From assembly GCA_031256395.1 (NCBI GenBank), contig JAIRQQ010000086.1, positions 37,420-101,419 on the forward strand: 64,000 nt of DNA, given 5' to 3'. Position numbers and translations under genes: made by a program. The stretch comes from Nitrososphaerota archaeon (GTDB taxonomy: Archaea; Thermoproteota; Bathyarchaeia; Bathyarchaeales; Bathycorpusculaceae). Shown in pieces: positions 12,896-38,684 of the stretch (position 1 is its first letter; each line of letters opens with the position of its first letter). A model generated the notes under the pieces. The model was not told where the DNA came from. It saw only the letters and a program-made list of their open reading frames with translations, and did not search any database.

Positions 12896-13321
12896 TTAGA
12901 ATATGCCGGCTTGGTGGAAGTAATAGTTCTCCTCTTTTTTAGAACCAAAACTCCGCACGCCATCTCTTCGAAGCTGACTCCGCAACTCCTCAGCGTATTC
13001 TTGGGTAATTTCACCTTTTTGCTGCAGATACGAAATAATTTCCTCCGCCTGCTCCACCGTATCGCATCGACGCAAAAAATCCACCGCCTCTGGATTAAAC
13101 GCACGTAATTTATCTGGCACCAGAGTCCGCTGTGGTGACTTCTCTATCTCCTGATGATGATGCTGGTGGGTTTCGCCGCATTCACAAGCTTCCCGCTCTG
13201 CCGCTTCTGCAGCTTCACAAACTCCCTCAATGGGTACCTGATTTTCTCCCCCTTCCAGCTCACGATAGAGATTAGGAAACATTTTCCTAAGATCCTTCTT
13301 ACTCACAGCCATAACAATCAA
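12896..13321 (-). CDS. DUF2095-like protein with Cys/His-rich insert
   Basis: P.AVDFLRRCDT.EQA.EII.YL...GEI...YA..LR..L...GVRSFGSKKE..YY. Confidence 0.8.
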   Translation of the reverse strand: MIVMAVSKKDLRKMFPNLYRELEGGENQVPIEGVCEAAEAAEREACECGETHQHHHQEIEKSPQRTLVPDKLRAFNPEAVDFLRRCDTVEQAEEIISYLQQKGEITQEYAEELRSQLRRDGVRSFGSKKEENYYFHQAGIF

Positions 13322-13437
13322 TCACACAAAAAACCCAGCGAGCTTTATGTGCTTTTTTGCCAACAACTCCACAACCACAAGAAAATACCCTGCCATAAAG
13401 ACCTGTAAATGCAAGGGCATTATCTACTACGGTTAGG

Positions 13438-14703
13438 TTAGCGTTTGGTGATGGTTTGGTAGAGTTCCACAGTTTTTTCTGCAATTTTGTTCCACGTAAA
13501 CTCTGCTAAGACGCGTTTTCGGCCGTTTTTACCTAGTTTGGTGGCCCAGTTATTTGTCTCAAGCGCGCTGGTTACGCCCCAGGCAATATCACTTGGATTA
13601 AAGGGATCAATGTGGTAGCCGCACTGCTCTGGCCCACAACAAATAACAATCTCTCGCATCCCACTCACCCCTGAGGCACCCACAACCACAGGTTTTTCCA
13701 TACTCATAGCCTCCAGCGCAACAATACCAAAGGGCTCATAAAAACTAGGAAACACGGCAATATCACAGGCAGCATAGTGAAGAATGCGTTCTTCTTCGGG
13801 GATAAAATCAAAACAAAACTTGACATACTCCCCCATCTTGGTCATCGCCGTAAGATTGGTGAGATATTCTTGCAGATCACCCACACCCACAATAACCAAC
13901 TTGGCTTGAGGCATTTTCGATAGAATGTGCGGCATAGCCAAAATCAGTTTATCCACCCCCTTCACCCCGACTAGGCGGCCTATGAAGAGCAACATGTGGT
14001 CATCGGGTTTTATGTCATATTTAGCACGCAGGCGCGCGATGTCTTCTTTGGATACGTTTGCGGGATTGTACTTCTCAGGATCCACCCCGTTGTAGCTGAC
14101 CTGAATCTTTTCCCTTGGAAAACCCAACCCGATAAGCTCATCTTTCATAGCATAAGAAACTGTAACCACCATATCAGCCATCTTGGCAGTACGCAACTCA
14201 ATGTTACTAACCACACCTGAACCCGTACCCATGGTTCGCCCCTTCTCAGTTGAGTGCACATGAAACGCAAACGGCAACCCCGTCTCGCGCTTAACTGTGG
14301 TGCCTCCCATAGCTGAGAGCCAATCATGCGCCACCACCACATCATAGTGCATCCCCTCTTGGCGAATTAACTCATTAATCAACTTGGCCGCCGAGAGATA
14401 ATTATAAACCATCAACTTACCAAACAAACGCTGCCCCCGACCCCACTTCCTAATATCCTCAGAAATAACATCAGGCAACGAATCAGAAATATCAATATGG
14501 AGCGGCCGATGAACCTCAATACCCCGCCAAATCTCACGAACCGGCATCGACCCCCCATCATCATTCATCGTAAAAACTGTAACATCATGATCATTTAAAA
14601 CAAACCGACGAGTAATCTCCGCACCATAAGTACCCAACCCACCAACAATCTTGGGAGGAAACTCGTAGATAAAAACCGCAAGTTTCAAACAAGCCACCAC
14701 CAA
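13438..14703 (-). CDS. GT4 family glycosyltransferase (glycogen-synthase-like)
   Basis: EFPP..VGGLG, HDWL, HSTE.GR, FPSFYEPFGIVALEAM. Confidence 0.92.
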   Translation of the reverse strand: MVVACLKLAVFIYEFPPKIVGGLGTYGAEITRRFVLNDHDVTVFTMNDDGGSMPVREIWRGIEVHRPLHIDISDSLPDVISEDIRKWGRGQRLFGKLMVYNYLSAAKLINELIRQEGMHYDVVVAHDWLSAMGGTTVKRETGLPFAFHVHSTEKGRTMGTGSGVVSNIELRTAKMADMVVTVSYAMKDELIGLGFPREKIQVSYNGVDPEKYNPANVSKEDIARLRAKYDIKPDDHMLLFIGRLVGVKGVDKLILAMPHILSKMPQAKLVIVGVGDLQEYLTNLTAMTKMGEYVKFCFDFIPEEERILHYAACDIAVFPSFYEPFGIVALEAMSMEKPVVVGASGVSGMREIVICCGPEQCGYHIDPFNPSDIAWGVTSALETNNWATKLGKNGRKRVLAEFTWNKIAEKTVELYQTITKR

Positions 14704-14804
14704 ACAAAAAGAAACCTCACTACAAAAACCTTACCCCACCCCACCCACCCCCACGCCAACCCCACAGGCACAGAAAAGTTTGATTAACTCCCACAACCCT
14801 ATAA

Positions 14805-15413
14805 TTGGTAGGTTCTGCTATGAGTCTCTCCCCTATCAAACAAGAAATCCTCTCCTCCATGCTACTAAATCTTCACCCCCAAACAGCCCAAGATATAGCC
14901 CAAGATATCCAAAAAGAACTCCAACCCGTCACCATAAACCTCCTAGGCCTCCAAAACATGGGCTATGTAGATCTGCATGAAAAAGACCACTACACCCTAA
15001 CAAAAAGCGGCAAACAAATCCTGGGCATACCTGAGATTACCAAAGAGAAAGCAGAAACCATTCTCGCATACGCACCCCACGATAAAGCCTTCAACTTTTA
15101 TACAGCAGACAACCAACCCCTCCACATTCATGCTCATAATCTGCGGGATTTCACCACCAAACTCGAAAAAGTCGACCTCACCTCAATTGAATTTCACCTA
15201 ACCCGTGGTGACTTTGAAACTTGGTTTAGTCACCTAGGCGATGAGGAACTCGTCAAAAAAACAATCCTGCTCAAACAAAAAAACCTCCCAAGCAACGAAC
15301 TACGCAACCAACTCCAAACCATAACAAAACAACGCTACATCGAACTCGCCAAACTCGCAGACATACCCCTCCTCCCAACCGAACACGACCACTCTCACCA
15401 CCATCACCACTAA
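14805..15413 (+). CDS. wHTH plus DUF5752-like protein with C-terminal poly-His
   Basis: AFNFYT..., SIEFHL.RGDFETW...LGD.EL; ends HDHSHHHHH. Confidence 0.75.
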   Translation: MVGSAMSLSPIKQEILSSMLLNLHPQTAQDIAQDIQKELQPVTINLLGLQNMGYVDLHEKDHYTLTKSGKQILGIPEITKEKAETILAYAPHDKAFNFYTADNQPLHIHAHNLRDFTTKLEKVDLTSIEFHLTRGDFETWFSHLGDEELVKKTILLKQKNLPSNELRNQLQTITKQRYIELAKLADIPLLPTEHDHSHHHHH

Positions 15414-15521: not shown

Positions 15522-16505
15522 TTAGGTTATGTGGCTGTAGACGGGGTGGCCTTTGAATTTGAGGTTGGTTTCTGACCACTCGACGCTTCCGCTTGGGAGT
15601 CTTGTGCACATCGATTTGACGATGGCTCCGGTGGGTGTGAATCTGACGCCGTCGAGCATTTCGCCTTTGGTGACGCCTGATGCTGCAAAGATCATTTCAT
15701 TGCCTTTTGCTAATTCGTCTTCGGTGTAGGTTTTGTTTACGTCGACTCCTGCGGCTTCTAGTCGGGTTAGTCGGTTGGCGTCGTCTTTTCTGTCGCGCCA
15801 GACTTTGACTAGCATGGTGCCGCCTAGACATTTGACTGCGGTGGCTGCGATGGTGGCCTCAGCTCCTGCGCCTGCGCCTATTAGCAAGTCGATGCCAGAA
15901 TTGGGTAGGCAGGTGACTATGGAGCCTGCGATGTCGCCATCGGTTATCAAGATGAGGCGCACGCCCATTTTTCTTAGGCGTTCAAGCAGGCCTAGGTGGC
16001 GTTCTCGTTCGAGCATGATTACAGTAAAGTTGGATAGGTCTAAGCCTTTGTTTTTTGCGACGGTCTGCACAATTTCTTCAAAGGTCATATCAGCCGATAG
16101 TTTGCCCCTGGATTGGCCATCGGTGGCAATTTTAAAGTAGTATCCATCATCGGGTAGTACTTGGAGACATCCCGCGGGTGCACAGGCTAATGCTGATATG
16201 GCGTCTTTTTTGCCCTTGGAGGTGGCGGTGGTGCCATCGACTTGGTCGATGACAAACTCGACTTTGGGGCCATTGCCGGTGCCGACTTTTTCTTTGTAAC
16301 TAAAGGCCGGCGCATTGTCTTTGGGGCCTTCACAGCAGATGACCTCGCCGTCTACCTCGGTTTGGTTGAGAACCGCTCGAGAGAAGTCCAGCGCGGTTTG
16401 GTCTACTTTATCAGAGTCACCTTTGCCTATGTGAAGTGCTGCTCCCACGGCTCCAGCTATGGTTATACGCGTTAGAGATGGAGATAATGATCTAAGAGAT
16501 GTCAT
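15522..16505 (-). CDS. glpX: Class II fructose-1,6-bisphosphatase (GlpX), divergent
   Basis: G.GD...VD, EG..D.AP, D.VDGT, LERERH, TDGDI, FAASGVT.G.MLDGVRF. Confidence 0.88.
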   Translation of the reverse strand: MTSLRSLSPSLTRITIAGAVGAALHIGKGDSDKVDQTALDFSRAVLNQTEVDGEVICCEGPKDNAPAFSYKEKVGTGNGPKVEFVIDQVDGTTATSKGKKDAISALACAPAGCLQVLPDDGYYFKIATDGQSRGKLSADMTFEEIVQTVAKNKGLDLSNFTVIMLERERHLGLLERLRKMGVRLILITDGDIAGSIVTCLPNSGIDLLIGAGAGAEATIAATAVKCLGGTMLVKVWRDRKDDANRLTRLEAAGVDVNKTYTEDELAKGNEMIFAASGVTKGEMLDGVRFTPTGAIVKSMCTRLPSGSVEWSETNLKFKGHPVYSHIT

Positions 16506-16506
16506 G

Positions 16507-17421
16507 TTAGTTCTTCCTCTGAGTTTGCCATAAATCTACAAATTCAATATAATTCTGAGCAATCTTTTCAATCGCTTGAGACCTATCTAGTTTGTTGGCT
16601 CTAAATTCGACTAGGGGATCCCAAAATATGGTTCGTCCAACTGCAAACCCAATAATACCGGGTATGCTGGCGCCTACTTTGAGCCACTCCTGAACTTTTT
16701 CTTTAGACTCGCCGCGCCCTAGGGTGATGACGCCTGCTTTGCGCCCATTGCTCTGCGCTTGTGCAACAACTGCTTTGGCCGCCTCAGCCTTATCGACCCC
16801 TTCGAGTTTCCAAATCGCCGGCTCAACTCCACTGTCTTGGATTTGTTTTATACTCTCAACCATCAGTTGCGGCCGCAACTCGATATCATATTTTTCTTTT
16901 GATCCGCCCAACTTGGCTAGTTGCTCAGAGGTAGCGGGCACGATAAGCTCAAAGAGAAACGGTCGATTGGTCGCTATAAGATAATCACTGAGTTTTTTAA
17001 GGCGCTGTAACTGACGCATATTGAGTGTGGCTTCACTCTCAGGATTGTAGCGCACCAACACCTTTAGAAAAGTCGGCTCAAACGCCTCAATATGATTGCT
17101 GAATTGATCACCGTATTCAAAGTCAAACTCGTCCTGACCAGATTTTTCTGCCGGCATAGCAAATTGGAACCCTTGTTGTTTGGCTTCCCGAAGAATATTT
17201 GATCCAAACTCTTCATCAACCAACAACCCCGCAATTTCTTTAGGAACCTTTTTTTGAAGCGCCAACTTGAAGCCTTCAAAAATTATTTGTTTGGCTTCTT
17301 GGATGCTTTGTTTCTCCTCAGCCGTTGGAGGCCGACCCTTGATTCCAAATAATTTCTCGATAAACGATGCCCTGTGATCAAAGGCTAAAATCAATAAGTC
17401 ACTCTTCGACCAATCCGTCAT
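16507..17421 (-). CDS. DUF2090 / IolC C-terminal-like class I aldolase (LacD-like TIM barrel)
   Basis: ILAFDHR, KVLVRYNP, LFELIVP, IWKLEG (Schiff-base Lys), LGRG, GFAVGRTIFW. Confidence 0.85.
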   Translation of the reverse strand: MTDWSKSDLLILAFDHRASFIEKLFGIKGRPPTAEEKQSIQEAKQIIFEGFKLALQKKVPKEIAGLLVDEEFGSNILREAKQQGFQFAMPAEKSGQDEFDFEYGDQFSNHIEAFEPTFLKVLVRYNPESEATLNMRQLQRLKKLSDYLIATNRPFLFELIVPATSEQLAKLGGSKEKYDIELRPQLMVESIKQIQDSGVEPAIWKLEGVDKAEAAKAVVAQAQSNGRKAGVITLGRGESKEKVQEWLKVGASIPGIIGFAVGRTIFWDPLVEFRANKLDRSQAIEKIAQNYIEFVDLWQTQRKN

Positions 17422-17546
17422 GTGTTTTTACCGTACTTTTATCTGTTTTTCTATAATAAATGCCTTGTTGCTATCTTTCAAGTTCCCACAAACAATTTTG
17501 GGGAAAATAAAATAATAACGCAACACATAACACTAAAGAATCAAAC

Positions 17547-18047
17547 ATGCCCGAATTACGCGTTGTCACCGTCAAATTAGCTGAGGAAATCTACCAAGAA
17601 CTCGCCCTACGTATCCCCGAAGGTGACCGTAGCACCTTTATCCGCGACGCCATAGCAGAAAAACTCCAAACCACCCCCAAACCCGACAAACTCTTAGCCC
17701 TCCAACAACGCCTAACCCAACTAGAAGAACAATTCGGTCAAATCCAAAAATACCTAAACGATCTTGACATCCTCACATTCCAACACGGCAAAATCAACCC
17801 CTACCAATACGCCCAAGACGAAGTCGACCGCCAAATCATTGAGTACCTTCTAAATTACAAATCCGCCACCACCCCCGAAATAGCTGACTACCTAAAAACC
17901 AATCGCTGGCTGGTTCTAAACCGTCTGCAAAGAATCGAGAAAACCAGCCAAAAACAAGCCGGTAAATCCATCATCGAATACTATGCAGGCGAACGCTCAG
18001 GCAAGAAAAAAGCTTGGTGGCTAAACGAAACCCTAATCCAAGAGTAA
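17547..18047 (+). CDS. Putative regulator: ribbon-helix-helix, coiled coil and wHTH
   Basis: RVVTVKL...DRSTFIRDAI; ATTPEIADYLKTNRWLVLNRL. Confidence 0.65.
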   Translation: MPELRVVTVKLAEEIYQELALRIPEGDRSTFIRDAIAEKLQTTPKPDKLLALQQRLTQLEEQFGQIQKYLNDLDILTFQHGKINPYQYAQDEVDRQIIEYLLNYKSATTPEIADYLKTNRWLVLNRLQRIEKTSQKQAGKSIIEYYAGERSGKKKAWWLNETLIQE

Positions 18048-18075: not shown

Positions 18076-19224
18076 ATGAATAAACATGTCTCATTTGTGT
18101 TGATTTTTCTTTTCATAAGTGGAACCTTTGTAACCACATTTAGTCCTGTTTCAGTATCAGCGGCTGTTGATGATTCTTGGACTACGCTGGCTCCTATGAA
18201 TCAAGCTAGATCTGATTTGGGAGTTGTGGCGGTGGATGACAAAATTTATGCTATTGGCGGAAATCTCGCATTTGGTGTTGCTACTAATAGTGAGAATAAT
18301 TATGTGGGTACTAATGAGGGCTATGATTCAAAGTCCAATACCTGGACTACTTTGGCCTCTATGCCTACTCCACGCCAAGGTTTTGCTATCGCCGCTTGTG
18401 ACGGCAAAATTTACTGCATAGGCGGATATGGCTACAATAAAGCGAGCAGTTTGCTGGATAATCTTGTGGTAAATGAGGTCTATGATATAGCTTCTAATAG
18501 TTGGAGTACTAAAACACCCCTAACCATTAGCGGACCGAACTTGCAGGCCCATGTTGTGGATGAAAAAATTTTCGTCATAGTCTCTAGTCTTCTGTATGTG
18601 TATGATCCAGTTACTGATTCTTGGTCTCAAAAAACTTCTCTACCCAAAGCCTCTGACTCTGATCCAGATAGTTATTCAGCTGTGATAGACAATCAGATAA
18701 TAGTTATTACTTATTTTGACGAAGCGCTCAGAGTCCTGAGCTATGATCAAAAAACAGATAAGTGGAGCGAAGTAAAACAGGACCGAAACAACAATAATAG
18801 TTCATTTGGCCGCGCTGTTGCGGTAGCAACATTGGGCCATTTTGCTCCTCAAAAAATCTATGTCCTAAGTGGTGGTAGCACTATATTTTTTAATCCAATA
18901 AGTTATATAGCGGCTTATGACCCATCAAGTGGGGTGTGGGAACAGGTCAAAGAAGATCCAACACCTCGACTAAATTTTGGCGTAGCTGTTCTTGATGACG
19001 TTTTATATGTAATCGGAGGAGCACTCCTAGGAACCGACGGCCAAATAGCGTCTTCAGCTGTAAATGCGCAATATGTACCCATTGGCTATAACGGTCCTGC
19101 ATTATCTGATTCTGACTCTCCTGCAGATAATATGGTTCTTGTTAGTGCATTAGTTGGAACAACTGCAGGCGTTGTTGTGGCAGGGGTATTATTGTTCATT
19201 TTTAAAAATAAAGAGAAGCAATAA
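18076..19224 (+). CDS. Secreted Kelch-repeat protein with C-terminal TM anchor
   Basis: Signal peptide; repeated KIY.IGG...YD....W motifs; TM plus KNKEKQ. Confidence 0.9.
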   Translation: MNKHVSFVLIFLFISGTFVTTFSPVSVSAAVDDSWTTLAPMNQARSDLGVVAVDDKIYAIGGNLAFGVATNSENNYVGTNEGYDSKSNTWTTLASMPTPRQGFAIAACDGKIYCIGGYGYNKASSLLDNLVVNEVYDIASNSWSTKTPLTISGPNLQAHVVDEKIFVIVSSLLYVYDPVTDSWSQKTSLPKASDSDPDSYSAVIDNQIIVITYFDEALRVLSYDQKTDKWSEVKQDRNNNNSSFGRAVAVATLGHFAPQKIYVLSGGSTIFFNPISYIAAYDPSSGVWEQVKEDPTPRLNFGVAVLDDVLYVIGGALLGTDGQIASSAVNAQYVPIGYNGPALSDSDSPADNMVLVSALVGTTAGVVVAGVLLFIFKNKEKQ

Positions 19225-19435: not shown

Positions 19436-20878
19436 CTATCTACGTTTCCGCAAAAACAACAACAAACCCCCACAAACAACAACAGCAACAACAACAGTAA
19501 CTACAACAGCACCCATAAAAAACATCGAGAGAGGCCCATTAACAACAGAGAAAGTTATGGTTTCAGAAGCACCAATGTTTCCATATTTGTCTTCCGCAAA
19601 CACCACCACACTATGCCGCCCATAGGATAACCCCGACAAAGTAACATTACCCTCAATTGTCACGTTAGCTTGGCCATCAAGACTATAGCCCATCCACACC
19701 ACCGGATGCTTTAAACCAAACTCAAGGGGCACATTCTCAAAATCATACACACCCCCCTCCTCCAAAGACAAAACACAAACCTCAGGCGCAACCCGCCCAT
19801 AACCCAACGGAGTATACCGCTCAACCAAAGTCAACACAAGCGGAATAGGATGCAAGCTATAACCATCAAAATAAGGCAAATCAGGCCTATAACCACCAAC
19901 AATATACACTAAATCATCCACAACAACCAAAGCAAAACCCGTACGCATCACAGACAAACCAGCAACAGGCTCCCAACGCTTAGTCTCCAAATCAAAAGCC
20001 ATATTCTCATAAATAGTCCCACTAAAAATATAGCCACCTATATCACTCCACTGTGAATAGGACAGACAATAGATTTTTGGCGGAGCATAAACCCCTGAGG
20101 TGGATATGACAAAAAGCCCCTCAAGACAATAAGGACCCCCCGTTGCAGCCACAGCCCATGCATCTTTTTCAGGATCATACACTTGGACTAGGGTTGTTAC
20201 CTCACTTGTAAGATTAAAATCAGCACCATCCCAGTAGTATGGATAAACATAAGCACCAACAACATAGATTTTATCCTTATAAACAGTGGAAGCTCCTCTA
20301 AAGCCCTTAGGCATCGAGGCCCCCTGAGTCCAACTATCATTTAGGGGATCATAGATCCAATTCAGAGAACCATTCCTAGAGCCACCAAGCAAAAATATTT
20401 TCCCACCCACAACATTTGCCTGCGCCCTCTCCTGAGAAAAGGGCATAGCAGTTCTATTCTCCCAAGTGTCCAAGACAGGATTATAAACCCAATTAAACGC
20501 ACTTGACCCATCACCGCCTATGCAGTAGATTTGGTCTTCAAAAACAGCAACTGCAAAATTATTGCTAGGAGCCGGCAGTGGTGTTTTGTAGATCCAGCTG
20601 TTAGTTTCTGGATCATACATTTCATTTGTATCCATCACTTCGCGCTCAGTATGAAAAAAATGTGGACGAGTTACCACAGTACCGCCCATAGCATAGATTT
20701 TACCCTCCACCACTGCGGCACCCAACTCGCATCGCTCCTGTTGCATCGGCGCAAGCTTAACCCAAACATCCTCCTCCGGCAAAGACACAGACTCCCCCAA
20801 AACAGAAACCTCAACAAACAAACCACAAACCAACAAAAACACAAACACCACACCCAACACCAAACACACATTTCGCAT
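19436..20878 (-). CDS. Secreted Kelch-repeat protein with Ig-like domain and TM anchor
   Basis: Kelch GG/YDP/W repeats; YSLDGQ.NVTI.GN.TL.GL..G.H.VVV.A.D..GN Ig-like module; TM plus RKRR. Confidence 0.9.
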   Translation of the reverse strand: MRNVCLVLGVVFVFLLVCGLFVEVSVLGESVSLPEEDVWVKLAPMQQERCELGAAVVEGKIYAMGGTVVTRPHFFHTEREVMDTNEMYDPETNSWIYKTPLPAPSNNFAVAVFEDQIYCIGGDGSSAFNWVYNPVLDTWENRTAMPFSQERAQANVVGGKIFLLGGSRNGSLNWIYDPLNDSWTQGASMPKGFRGASTVYKDKIYVVGAYVYPYYWDGADFNLTSEVTTLVQVYDPEKDAWAVAATGGPYCLEGLFVISTSGVYAPPKIYCLSYSQWSDIGGYIFSGTIYENMAFDLETKRWEPVAGLSVMRTGFALVVVDDLVYIVGGYRPDLPYFDGYSLHPIPLVLTLVERYTPLGYGRVAPEVCVLSLEEGGVYDFENVPLEFGLKHPVVWMGYSLDGQANVTIEGNVTLSGLSYGRHSVVVFAEDKYGNIGASETITFSVVNGPLSMFFMGAVVVTVVVAVVVCGGLLLFLRKRR

Positions 20879-36380: not shown

Positions 36381-38684
36381 TTAATTGTGAGTGTTTGTTT
36401 CAACCTTAAAGATGGCCACTTTATTGTTTATAAATACAGAACTAAATACTGGGTCATTGGCATATTTGGGATTTAATTCAAAATTGCGGTTCACAACATA
36501 TGAGACATTGTATTGTTGCAGAGCAACTCTGTAATCAAAAATAGTCATAGCTAACTCGGGAACACCCGCGGGGGTCTGTAGATTGGTTCTAAGAATCTGC
36601 TCAAGACTCTCCATGCCTGTCAGATTTTGCAGATCAATATTTGCTGCAGAAAACATACCCACCAGAATCTGAACCTCAACCCCTGACATATCTTGCATAG
36701 CATAGGATAGCTGAGTGGTACCGCGATCTTGTAAGTACCGGCTGGTTACTGTTGGGGTGGAGTGTGCAAAAATTAGCTGTCCACATATGTTTGCCTCTAA
36801 ATCTAAAACTGCTACTGTTTCATTGGTTGTTTGTTGGAGCAATGTGCCTGGAGAATCAACTACCAACTCTAGTCGATCTAGGGTTATGTTGGGGTTGAGG
36901 CTCTGAGCCGATAGGGTCAGGTTTGCAAATTGACTTACGGGGGTGAGTGTTACAATTTCTAAAAAGCTAACCTCACTGTTTGCTCGATTAACAACTATCG
37001 CTGGACTGCTATCTGGGTCTGCATAAGCAAGTCCCATATCAACAACCGGCAAATCTGACACATTGACTACTTGGGTCCCCTTTTCGTTGTGCTCATAGTG
37101 CAGAGTAATTTGGCTACTGTTAAACGCAAAAAACTCGTATGGTTCAATGGTTTCTTTTAGGTTTACCAAAAATAGTGGGTTGTGTCTGCCCAAATAGCCT
37201 CCATCTTCTCGAACCTGAACATACCCATTGTCCAGCACATAATTGGTATTTAGGAGATAGGATACATTTCTTGCCATATTCACCTCACCCATAATCGATA
37301 TGGCCTGCAAATCAATACTGCTAATAGTCGGACGCTGACCAAACCCCGCCATCCACCACCCATAGGACATATCTGAAACAAACACCGCATCTGCCGAAGT
37401 GTTCTGCTTAGCCCACCTGATTGCCTGATAACCCTCCGCATCCATAACCTGATAAAACTCTTGATGTCTAACATCCCACGGAAAACGCAGGATAAACGCG
37501 CCAAACATTAAACCCAGCAAAATCAAAATCAAAAAAACCGAGCACCCCTTCCTACGTTGTTCTGTATTCAACGGTATTTTCCGATCTAACTTGCAAAACA
37601 GCCATTTTTTCTTATTTCTACAAATATTACAAATATTGACTCTAAAGGGGTATTTTGAGATCGAATCAATGATTAGTGCAAATAGAATCAGAACTGGATG
37701 AATAAAAAAATAGGGAAACCGAAGCCCATCTAAATACAATCCCGTCCGATAACTCTGAGTTAGCAATAAAGGCACCAAAAGCCACATAGCAAGCAAAAAT
37801 ACCGAAAAAACAAAGAACCGGTGCTTAATTTTCTTTGAAAACCAAAAATATGCTCCCACACCAACAAAAAGCGTCAACACAGCCCAAATGGGAATGGTAC
37901 GCTCCAAAATCAATACCTGAGCAATATCTATAGAACCCACCAACACAGTGCTCTCACTCAAATAAACCGGTATGGCACTCACCAAAAAAGGCGACACCAA
38001 AACCAACCCAACAACAAGCGGCAATGCCAAGCTAAGACTAAACTTTCTTGATCTATCAAACAACCTTGGAAAAACAAGAACACACCCCAGAGCAAGTATG
38101 ACTATACCACTAAATACCGCCGCACTCAAAGAATGCGTCAAAAATATAGCTGCGGCCACAAGAGATGCCGAAACATAAAATGCCCCCCGAGAAAGCTTAT
38201 CACGTCTAAGAAACAAATAAAACATCACCGGCATCAAAAACAATACAACAGCATTGGGATAACCCCCCCAACAAAGAATCTCAACATCCAACGATGAAAA
38301 CGTAACAAGCAAAGCAACAATAAACGCTGTTTGCGCACTCCACACAACCCGCGTAACCAAAAAAACAGCCAAAACAATAAACGCCGAAAACAAAGCTGCA
38401 ACCAAAGCCTGCGCCACATAACTAGACAACCCCGTAAAAAGTATCACCTGAGCCGCAACAATATGAAACCCCGGAAACGCAAGCCCCAACTCACCCCCCA
38501 TCTGATAAAAATTCTGAAGAAAATTAGTATGCCCCCCTTGCGTAATCGAGTTAATAACACTAGCATGACAGCCAATATCTGCCCCCGGAGGAAAAGTCTG
38601 CCCAAGCAACATCACTAACCGATAAACAAACGCAAAAACAAAGATACCCACCAAAAGAACCTGCTTCTTAGAGCAACTAACCAA
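36381..38684 (-). CDS. Polytopic GT-C/STT3-like membrane protein, subtype B copy 3
   Basis: GADIGCH, FPGFH, WGGYPN, THSLS, QAIRWAKQNT..DAVFVSDMSYGWW. Confidence 0.75.
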   Translation of the reverse strand: MVSCSKKQVLLVGIFVFAFVYRLVMLLGQTFPPGADIGCHASVINSITQGGHTNFLQNFYQMGGELGLAFPGFHIVAAQVILFTGLSSYVAQALVAALFSAFIVLAVFLVTRVVWSAQTAFIVALLVTFSSLDVEILCWGGYPNAVVLFLMPVMFYLFLRRDKLSRGAFYVSASLVAAAIFLTHSLSAAVFSGIVILALGCVLVFPRLFDRSRKFSLSLALPLVVGLVLVSPFLVSAIPVYLSESTVLVGSIDIAQVLILERTIPIWAVLTLFVGVGAYFWFSKKIKHRFFVFSVFLLAMWLLVPLLLTQSYRTGLYLDGLRFPYFFIHPVLILFALIIDSISKYPFRVNICNICRNKKKWLFCKLDRKIPLNTEQRRKGCSVFLILILLGLMFGAFILRFPWDVRHQEFYQVMDAEGYQAIRWAKQNTSADAVFVSDMSYGWWMAGFGQRPTISSIDLQAISIMGEVNMARNVSYLLNTNYVLDNGYVQVREDGGYLGRHNPLFLVNLKETIEPYEFFAFNSSQITLHYEHNEKGTQVVNVSDLPVVDMGLAYADPDSSPAIVVNRANSEVSFLEIVTLTPVSQFANLTLSAQSLNPNITLDRLELVVDSPGTLLQQTTNETVAVLDLEANICGQLIFAHSTPTVTSRYLQDRGTTQLSYAMQDMSGVEVQILVGMFSAANIDLQNLTGMESLEQILRTNLQTPAGVPELAMTIFDYRVALQQYNVSYVVNRNFELNPKYANDPVFSSVFINNKVAIFKVETNTHN

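Follow-up and report, generated by a model that had tools for sequence, protein, structure and literature searches.

Genes at the DUF2090-glpX locus

We analysed a 64,000-nucleotide stretch (hereafter the window; positions 37,420 to 101,419 of contig JAIRQQ010000086.1, assembly GCA_031256395.1) from a Nitrososphaerota archaeon of the class Bathyarchaeia. The analysis centred on a stand-alone DUF2090 gene, the glpX gene that directly follows it, and a regulator-like gene, here named REG, that is transcribed divergently from the pair. In relatives, the orthologue of REG flanks the gene for the bifunctional fructose-1,6-bisphosphate (FBP) aldolase/phosphatase (FBPA/P). The features of the locus, in window coordinates, are as follows.

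16507-17421, minus strand: stand-alone DUF2090 protein, 304 aa (PF09863, 138.2 bits against a cutoff of 27)
15522-16505, minus strand: GlpX, class II fructose-1,6-bisphosphatase (FBPase), 327 aa (PF03320, 285 bits, residues 6-312 of 327)
17422-17546: 125-bp intergenic region separating the divergent DUF2090 and REG genes, with A/T-rich TATA-like boxes on both sides
17547-18047, plus strand: REG, regulator-like protein, 166 aa

The stop codon of DUF2090 and the start codon of glpX are 1 base apart (...AAC TAA c ATG...), and a Shine-Dalgarno (SD)-like motif, GAGGA, lies just upstream of the glpX ATG. GlpX is predicted from the junction to be translationally coupled downstream of DUF2090. An earlier sequence-only reading of this DNA had placed the end of DUF2090 1 nt before glpX, which agrees with the open reading frames and the junction sequence, and had noted that DUF2090 keeps the motifs AFDHR and WKLEG, which we found at residues 13-17 and 204-208.

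An AlphaFold2 (AF2) model of the DUF2090 protein, built with 55 homologues, has a predicted local distance difference test (pLDDT) score of 97.8 and forms a (beta/alpha)8 triosephosphate isomerase (TIM) barrel. The top Foldseek matches of this model are LacD tagatose-1,6-bisphosphate aldolases (template modelling (TM) score ~0.75, E = 2e-14), followed by a sulfohexulose-1-phosphate aldolase, YihT aldolases, 2-amino-3,7-dideoxy-D-threo-hept-6-ulosonate (ADH) synthase and muscle FBP aldolase (FBA). The family profile places K120, E158 and K205 on the LacD motifs VKFLLYY, FLEVL and DVLKV, respectively; 55/55, 54/55 and 49/55 homologues keep them. They are candidates for a catalytic Lys/Glu/Lys triad, in which K205 would be the Schiff-base lysine. 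The LacD enzymes of Streptococcus and Staphylococcus (PDB 3MHF, 5F2L and 3KAO) resemble DUF2090 in the TIM barrel, the aligned triad and the predicted Schiff-base chemistry that forms dihydroxyacetone phosphate (DHAP), and LacD is represented in the PDB by a complex with FBP (5F2G). However, DUF2090 is only 16-18% identical to LacD, and its context is gluconeogenesis or the pentose-phosphate pathway (PPP), whereas that of LacD is the lac/tagatose pathway. The window protein scores 35.7 bits against the LacD model NF009498 (cutoff 184) and is therefore not a LacD orthologue. The same fold is found, at a greater distance, in the YihT sulfofructose-phosphate aldolases and in the Paracoccus strain Merri sulfohexulose-1-phosphate aldolase (PDB 8TNF, entered there as a 'DUF2090 domain-containing protein'). 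These enzymes release DHAP from a ketohexose-1-phosphate whose C6 group is anionic, but the profile match is partial (55 bits) and their context is sulfosugar catabolism (PMC12421959).

In the searchable literature, DUF2090 (PF09863) appears only as the IolC-fused 5-dehydro-2-deoxyphosphogluconate (DKGP) aldolase of the GapMind papers and in one Pseudomonas transcriptome preprint, and COG3892 does not appear. The argument of Price et al. 2022 for a DKGP aldolase function of the DUF2090 domain fused to IolC relied on the same LacD residues (PMC9007349), and the IolC-DUF2090 fusions have been linked genetically to inositol use (PMC9007349). That genetic link, and the labels 'IolC' or 'DKGP aldolase domain-containing' that NCBI and JGI give to homologues, would be in keeping with an enzyme of myo-inositol catabolism, a DKGP aldolase that no longer has the IolC kinase as its partner. 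The window protein does share PF09863 with the IolC-DUF2090 kinase/aldolases, and both are predicted to be DHAP-releasing class I aldolases. However, it has no N-terminal PfkB (IolC) kinase domain and scores only 68 bits against the fusion model NF047869 (cutoff 600). A genuine IolC fusion (P0324, 913 bits to NF047869) is 27% identical to it and sits on a very long branch apart from all stand-alone forms. No iol genes were present in the ~100 archaeal and bacterial loci inspected; the partners of DUF2090 are FBP and PPP enzymes, and in the window the partner is an FBPase. An inositol-pathway role was rejected on the lack of iol genes, the low identity to the true IolC fusion and the separate clade, and we regard it as highly improbable.

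The sequence-only reading had also described GlpX as divergent on account of the motifs CEGPKDNAP and DQVDGT. Both motifs are present, but the protein is not unusual for its lineage. Its closest PDB match is M. tuberculosis FBPase II (220 bits), the catalytic site of which comprises D27, E51, D79, D82, T84, Y114, R159, R161, D183 and E208 (PMC5892879). When mapped by alignment, all ten residues are identical in the window GlpX (D35, E59, D87, D90, T92, Y123, R167, R169, D191 and E216). The homology to the M. tuberculosis and E. coli GlpX proteins (PDB 6AYY and 3D1R) extends over the full length. The window GlpX differs from them in the lineage motif CEGPKD, in the DQVDGT motif of the DUF2090-paired clade and in a score of 234.1 bits against the TIGR00330 equivalog model, which is below the cutoff of 259.3. 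It was the only Bathyarchaeial GlpX scored on this model, and the low score looks like lineage divergence because the PF03320 scores of Bathyarchaeial GlpX proteins are similar (251-325 bits). CEGPKD is common to all 21 aligned Bathyarchaeia GlpX sequences, whether paired with DUF2090 or not, and the P-to-Q change in DQVDGT is the only motif difference among them that is specific to the paired clade. The lineage-wide CEGPKD motif and the intact catalytic residues rule out an unusually divergent GlpX with an altered metal site, and the window GlpX is predicted to be an ordinary, competent FBPase of its lineage.

Displacement of FBPA/P beside a conserved regulator

To the left of glpX in window coordinates lie two genes that serve as anchors for synteny comparisons.

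14805-15413, plus strand: DUF5752-like gene, the right-hand border of the slot between it and REG, and a synteny anchor (PF19027, 23.9 bits)
13438-14703, minus strand: glycosyltransferase family 4 (GT4) gene, a synteny anchor beyond the slot (PF00534/PF13439)

We compared the slot occupied by DUF2090-glpX across 18 loci fetched from the window's genus (L110-L127). REG adjoins the slot in 18/18 loci, the DUF5752-like gene is found at the same position beside it in 17/18, and GT4 is kept in 17/18 (not in L121). The full order of REG, slot, DUF5752-like, GT4, nucleotidyltransferase (NTase)-like and DUF2095 is present in 14 of the 18. Depending on the genome, the slot is empty or contains an intact FBPA/P (523 bits to NF041126, over the cutoff), remnants of FBPA/P interrupted by stop codons, or DUF2090-glpX. 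Thirteen genus genomes have a match to PF01950, the FBPA/P family, and in all 13 the match is divergent from REG at a distance of 100-250 bp. In the other genera of the family (41 genomes), REG divergently adjoins FBPA/P in 29-30 of the 31 genomes with an FBPA/P match, and FBPA/P is therefore the ancestral occupant of the slot and DUF2090-glpX the replacement. DUF2090-glpX occupies the exact FBPA/P slot beside the same regulator, which is an in-situ displacement. The archaeal FBPA/P (PF01950, NF041126) and the DUF2090-glpX pair have in common the slot, the regulator and the presumed net reaction (triose phosphates to fructose-6-phosphate (F6P)). However, their folds are unrelated, and FBPA/P is a single polypeptide whereas here the two activities are predicted to be split over a class I aldolase and GlpX.

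FBPA/P is in decay in part of the genus. Five genomes have an intact gene and seven have fragments only (G229, G230, G242, G250, G252, G268 and G276; L113-L117), with in-frame stops in five of these seven; others have lost FBPA/P entirely.

Among 201 Bathyarchaeia genomes, DUF2090 was detected above cutoff only in the window's genus, plus one borderline partial match (24 bits) in another family. It is present in 35 of the 61 sampled genus genomes. The sequence-only reading had proposed checking whether the DUF2090-GlpX pairing is conserved and whether the genome lacks the bifunctional FBPA/P. GlpX directly follows DUF2090 in 18/18 Bathyarchaeial loci inspected, and the pairing is not due to chance. 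The window genome, an assembly that is 90% complete, lacks FBPA/P, class II FBA and any equivalog of the archaeal class IA FBA. It does have a 6-phosphofructokinase (PFK) homologue, and it has a single GlpX, as does each DUF2090 carrier. Across the genus, neither PF01950 nor the class II FBA family PF01116 was found in any DUF2090-bearing genome (0/35 for each), whereas a PF01116 gene is present in 23/26 genomes without DUF2090; in the carriers, DUF2090 would fill the FBA role where neither of these other families is encoded. Fourteen of these 23 genes score 177-349 bits against PF01116, and the two tested on NCBIfam (L129 and L130) both pass the TIGR01859 equivalog cutoff. The three genus genomes that lack both DUF2090 and PF01116 are 66-85% complete. 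In termite-gut Bathyarchaeia, gluconeogenesis has been inferred from phosphoenolpyruvate (PEP) synthetase and FBPase, with the aldolase unmentioned (Loh et al. 2021, PMC7886697).

Two further aldolase-related proteins were observed in the genus. A divergent PF01116 relative of 423-435 aa (48-62 bits) is found in 8-9 genomes (L128:1022-2293 in G257; also G240, G242, G248, G250, G252, G268 and G276). It is confined to genus members without DUF2090 and without a PF01116 score of at least 177 bits, and may be a third alternative aldolase. An LsrF-like DhnA-family protein was found in 21/21 genus genomes sampled. The copy in the window genome (L002:1426-2238; G000:C95) is over the NCBIfam equivalog cutoff for 3-hydroxy-5-phosphonooxypentane-2,4-dione thiolase, and it may be an enzyme of the 6-deoxy-5-ketofructose 1-phosphate (DKFP)-synthase type.

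In the DUF2090 phylogeny, the sister of the Bathyarchaeial clade is a DPANN (Micrarchaeota-labelled) metagenome-assembled genome (MAG), inside a group of candidate phyla radiation (CPR), DPANN and Bdellovibrionota sequences. The DUF2090-paired GlpX is of Bathyarchaeial type but branches as a clade of its own, outside every unpaired Bathyarchaeial GlpX, those from the same genus included. Overall, glpX is above cutoff in 44 of the 201 Bathyarchaeia genomes (23/27 in the family), and the neighbours of unpaired copies are unrelated. Most simply, the two genes would have spread together as one cassette, with loss of the resident glpX afterwards.

REG orthologues (62-88% identity) are present in 55/61 genus genomes and 36/41 genomes of the other genera of the family. 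The gene had been described from sequence as a divergent regulator combining ribbon-helix-helix (RHH) and winged helix-turn-helix (wHTH) domains. A divergent gene of 166 aa is indeed present upstream, but the RHH-wHTH fold is unconfirmed: no Pfam family is above cutoff (a wHTH family reaches 19 bits only), a REG profile has no match in the PDB, and the AF2 model is poor (pLDDT 58). When the intergenic regions of 11 loci were aligned, conserved blocks were found close to each gene start, and a search of these regions for operators returned promoter-proximal blocks only, with no clear palindrome. Its position and conservation make REG a strong candidate for a so far undescribed regulator of gluconeogenesis in Bathyarchaeia. 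One block, resembling GGGRAAA..ATGAAATAA (window 17470-17500), lies ~40-60 bp upstream of REG and is kept in both FBPA/P-type and DUF2090-type loci; it could represent a promoter or a site of autoregulation.

The genes around the slot were also annotated. The conserved block beside it (window 12896-15413; L110-L127) consists of the DUF5752-like, GT4, NTase-like and DUF2095 genes, of which the NTase-like member is missing in this window. The top NCBIfam match of the GT4 gene is glycogen synthase (glgA_Coryne, 171 bits, under the cutoff), and the block could tie a gluconeogenic supply of F6P to glucan or compatible-solute synthesis. Directly past REG are two genes for Kelch-repeat proteins (18076-19224 and 19436-20878), which have no counterpart at this position in 18 related loci. 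In the first of these proteins, the one that was translated, the N-terminus is signal-like and the C-terminus carries a hydrophobic anchor.

DUF2090 outside the Bathyarchaeia

The DUF2090 family comprises 2,234 clusters at 50% identity (E < 1e-3), most of them stand-alone proteins of ~300 aa. Fusions were counted among DUF2090 domains of the stand-alone type, which are 39-58% identical to the window protein. The domain is fused to PFK in nine clusters (P0289 is above the TIGR02483 cutoff), to a 1-phosphofructokinase-type (FruK-type) PfkB protein (P0275) and to GlpX (P0133, above the TIGR00330 cutoff). Other fusion partners are phosphoglucose isomerase (PGI; 6 clusters), 6-phosphogluconolactonase (Pgl; 17), ROK glucokinase (7), Gnd and Rpe. 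As separate genes, PFK lies directly downstream of DUF2090 in a Micrarchaeota MAG and a Solirubrobacterales MAG, and in another DPANN MAG an unrelated GlpX (41% identity) lies directly upstream of DUF2090, in the reverse order.

These arrangements bear on whether DUF2090 could stand beside glpX without metabolic meaning, with an unrelated function or none. In favour of such a chance adjacency, the pairing within Bathyarchaeia traces to a single origin. However, the GlpX association has arisen independently, both as a fusion and, with GlpX of another lineage, in the opposite gene order. The 1-nt spacer with its SD-like motif, the conserved catalytic residues and a distribution that is complementary to that of other FBAs likewise speak against chance adjacency, and we give this explanation almost no credence.

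In ~45 bacterial loci, DUF2090 (X) is found inside operons of the form tal-pgi-X-(rpe)-gnd-tkt-zwf-pgl-rpiB, in which stops and starts often overlap. The carriers include Acidobacteriota, Planctomycetota, Alphaproteobacteria, Betaproteobacteria, Verrucomicrobiota and others. Loci L034-L104 (e.g., L068:68-11194) hold pgm, malQ, tal, pgi, DUF2090, rpe, gnd, zwf, pgl and rpiB with overlapping junctions, and by gene content this type is a complete pentose-phosphate operon with an unannotated predicted aldolase. Class II FBA is missing in four of the five bacterial carrier genomes checked.

The bacterial operons raise the alternative that DUF2090 acts physiologically on a different ketose bisphosphate derived from DHAP, such as sedoheptulose-1,7-bisphosphate (SBP) or tagatose-1,6-bisphosphate, with GlpX as the matching bisphosphatase, for example in a transaldolase-independent PPP or in riboneogenesis. 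It would fit the position of bacterial DUF2090 in pentose-phosphate operons, in some genomes that already have an FBA, and the His_Phos_1 phosphatase that is encoded in eight of the bacterial operons. In addition, the GlpX homologues from cyanobacteria that are in the PDB act as dual FBP/SBPases, and the nearest solved folds of DUF2090 are tagatose-bisphosphate aldolases. However, the bacterial operons already encode transaldolase, and the fusion partners PFK and FruK-type kinases make FBP. In the archaeon, the cassette sits in FBPA/P's own slot, and tblastn searches of the window genome with bacterial tal (transaldolase), tkt (transketolase), rpe, rpiB, pgi, zwf, gnd and pgl gave no match. 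An SBP route would therefore have no continuation there and an SBP role is unlikely in this archaeon; a route through SBP and transketolase was discarded as unsupported. The sequence-only reading had left its proposed aldolase and bisphosphatase pair with two options, an alternative route of gluconeogenesis or action on another ketose bisphosphate. The slot, the mutual exclusivity with other aldolases and the fusions favour the first of these, and the lack of transketolase and transaldolase disfavours the second, which we consider unlikely overall.

Predicted function of the DUF2090-GlpX pair

We propose, with a probability of roughly 0.78, that stand-alone DUF2090 is a class I FBP aldolase of a LacD-like TIM-barrel lineage that, together with GlpX, replaces FBPA/P. 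An FBA function is supported by the displacement of FBPA/P, the complementarity with other aldolases, the fusions and the bacterial operons. This assignment builds on gene order, synteny, phyletic pattern, fusions, fold and residue conservation, from which we infer the substrate, the direction of flux and the regulation.

In the proposed mechanism, DUF2090 would use its Schiff-base lysine to condense DHAP and glyceraldehyde-3-phosphate to FBP, which the co-translated GlpX would then hydrolyse irreversibly to F6P. Together, the two proteins would do the job of the single archaeal FBPA/P. In one subclade of the genus, DUF2090-glpX would have taken over the FBPA/P slot beside the same divergent regulator. 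Both genes of the cassette probably came in together, and the stand-alone glpX and class II FBA already present would then no longer have been kept.

Several observations weigh against this proposal. Because DUF2090 is monophyletic and so is its paired GlpX, the complementary pattern in the genus probably goes back to one acquisition and counts as one evolutionary event rather than 35. The window genome is 90% complete, a caveat for the aldolases that it appears to lack. It also contains two DhnA-family genes, one for ADH synthase, beside dehydroquinate synthase II, and one for the LsrF-like protein. Methanogen relatives of ADH synthase and of LsrF-like DhnA proteins show FBA side activity, and DUF2090 is therefore not the sole conceivable FBA of this archaeon. 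Some of the DUF2090 fusions in metagenomic data could be gene-calling read-throughs. Among the bacterial carriers, Dongia soli has a DhnA-type FBA beside DUF2090 and a Planctomycetota MAG has both class II and FbaB-type enzymes. LacD-like aldolases co-occur with DUF2090 in two Acidobacteriota carriers. The idea that DUF2090 is the only FBA of its bacterial carriers was dropped as a general rule, given the co-occurring DhnA-type or LacD-like aldolases. Since orthodox FBAs co-occur, DUF2090 in bacteria may not be the only FBA but an FBP/SBP aldolase dedicated to the PPP.

Glycolysis and gluconeogenesis have FBP aldolase as a core enzyme, as do the Calvin and pentose-phosphate networks, and it is often listed as missing when the metabolism of uncultured microbes is reconstructed. 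On the present sequence comparisons, we think it fairly likely that stand-alone DUF2090 is an unrecognised FBA family that accounts for the 'missing' FBA of many genomes, and that the cassette displaced FBPA/P under REG, the first candidate gluconeogenesis regulator of the class. The family spans more than 2,000 clusters from Acidobacteriota, Planctomycetota, Actinomycetota, Proteobacteria, CPR, DPANN and Bathyarchaeia. Its stand-alone members are now mis-named as inositol kinase or DKGP aldolase. If the proposal is true, an FBA family has been carried under the 'DUF2090 / IolC' label, and its recognition would correct the annotation of thousands of genomes. The bifunctional FBPA/P is often held to be the ancestral gluconeogenic enzyme. 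The Bathyarchaeial locus offers a natural experiment in which FBPA/P is intact, decaying, deleted or replaced by a split pair beside one regulator, which makes the displacement of this enzyme and its regulation directly testable.

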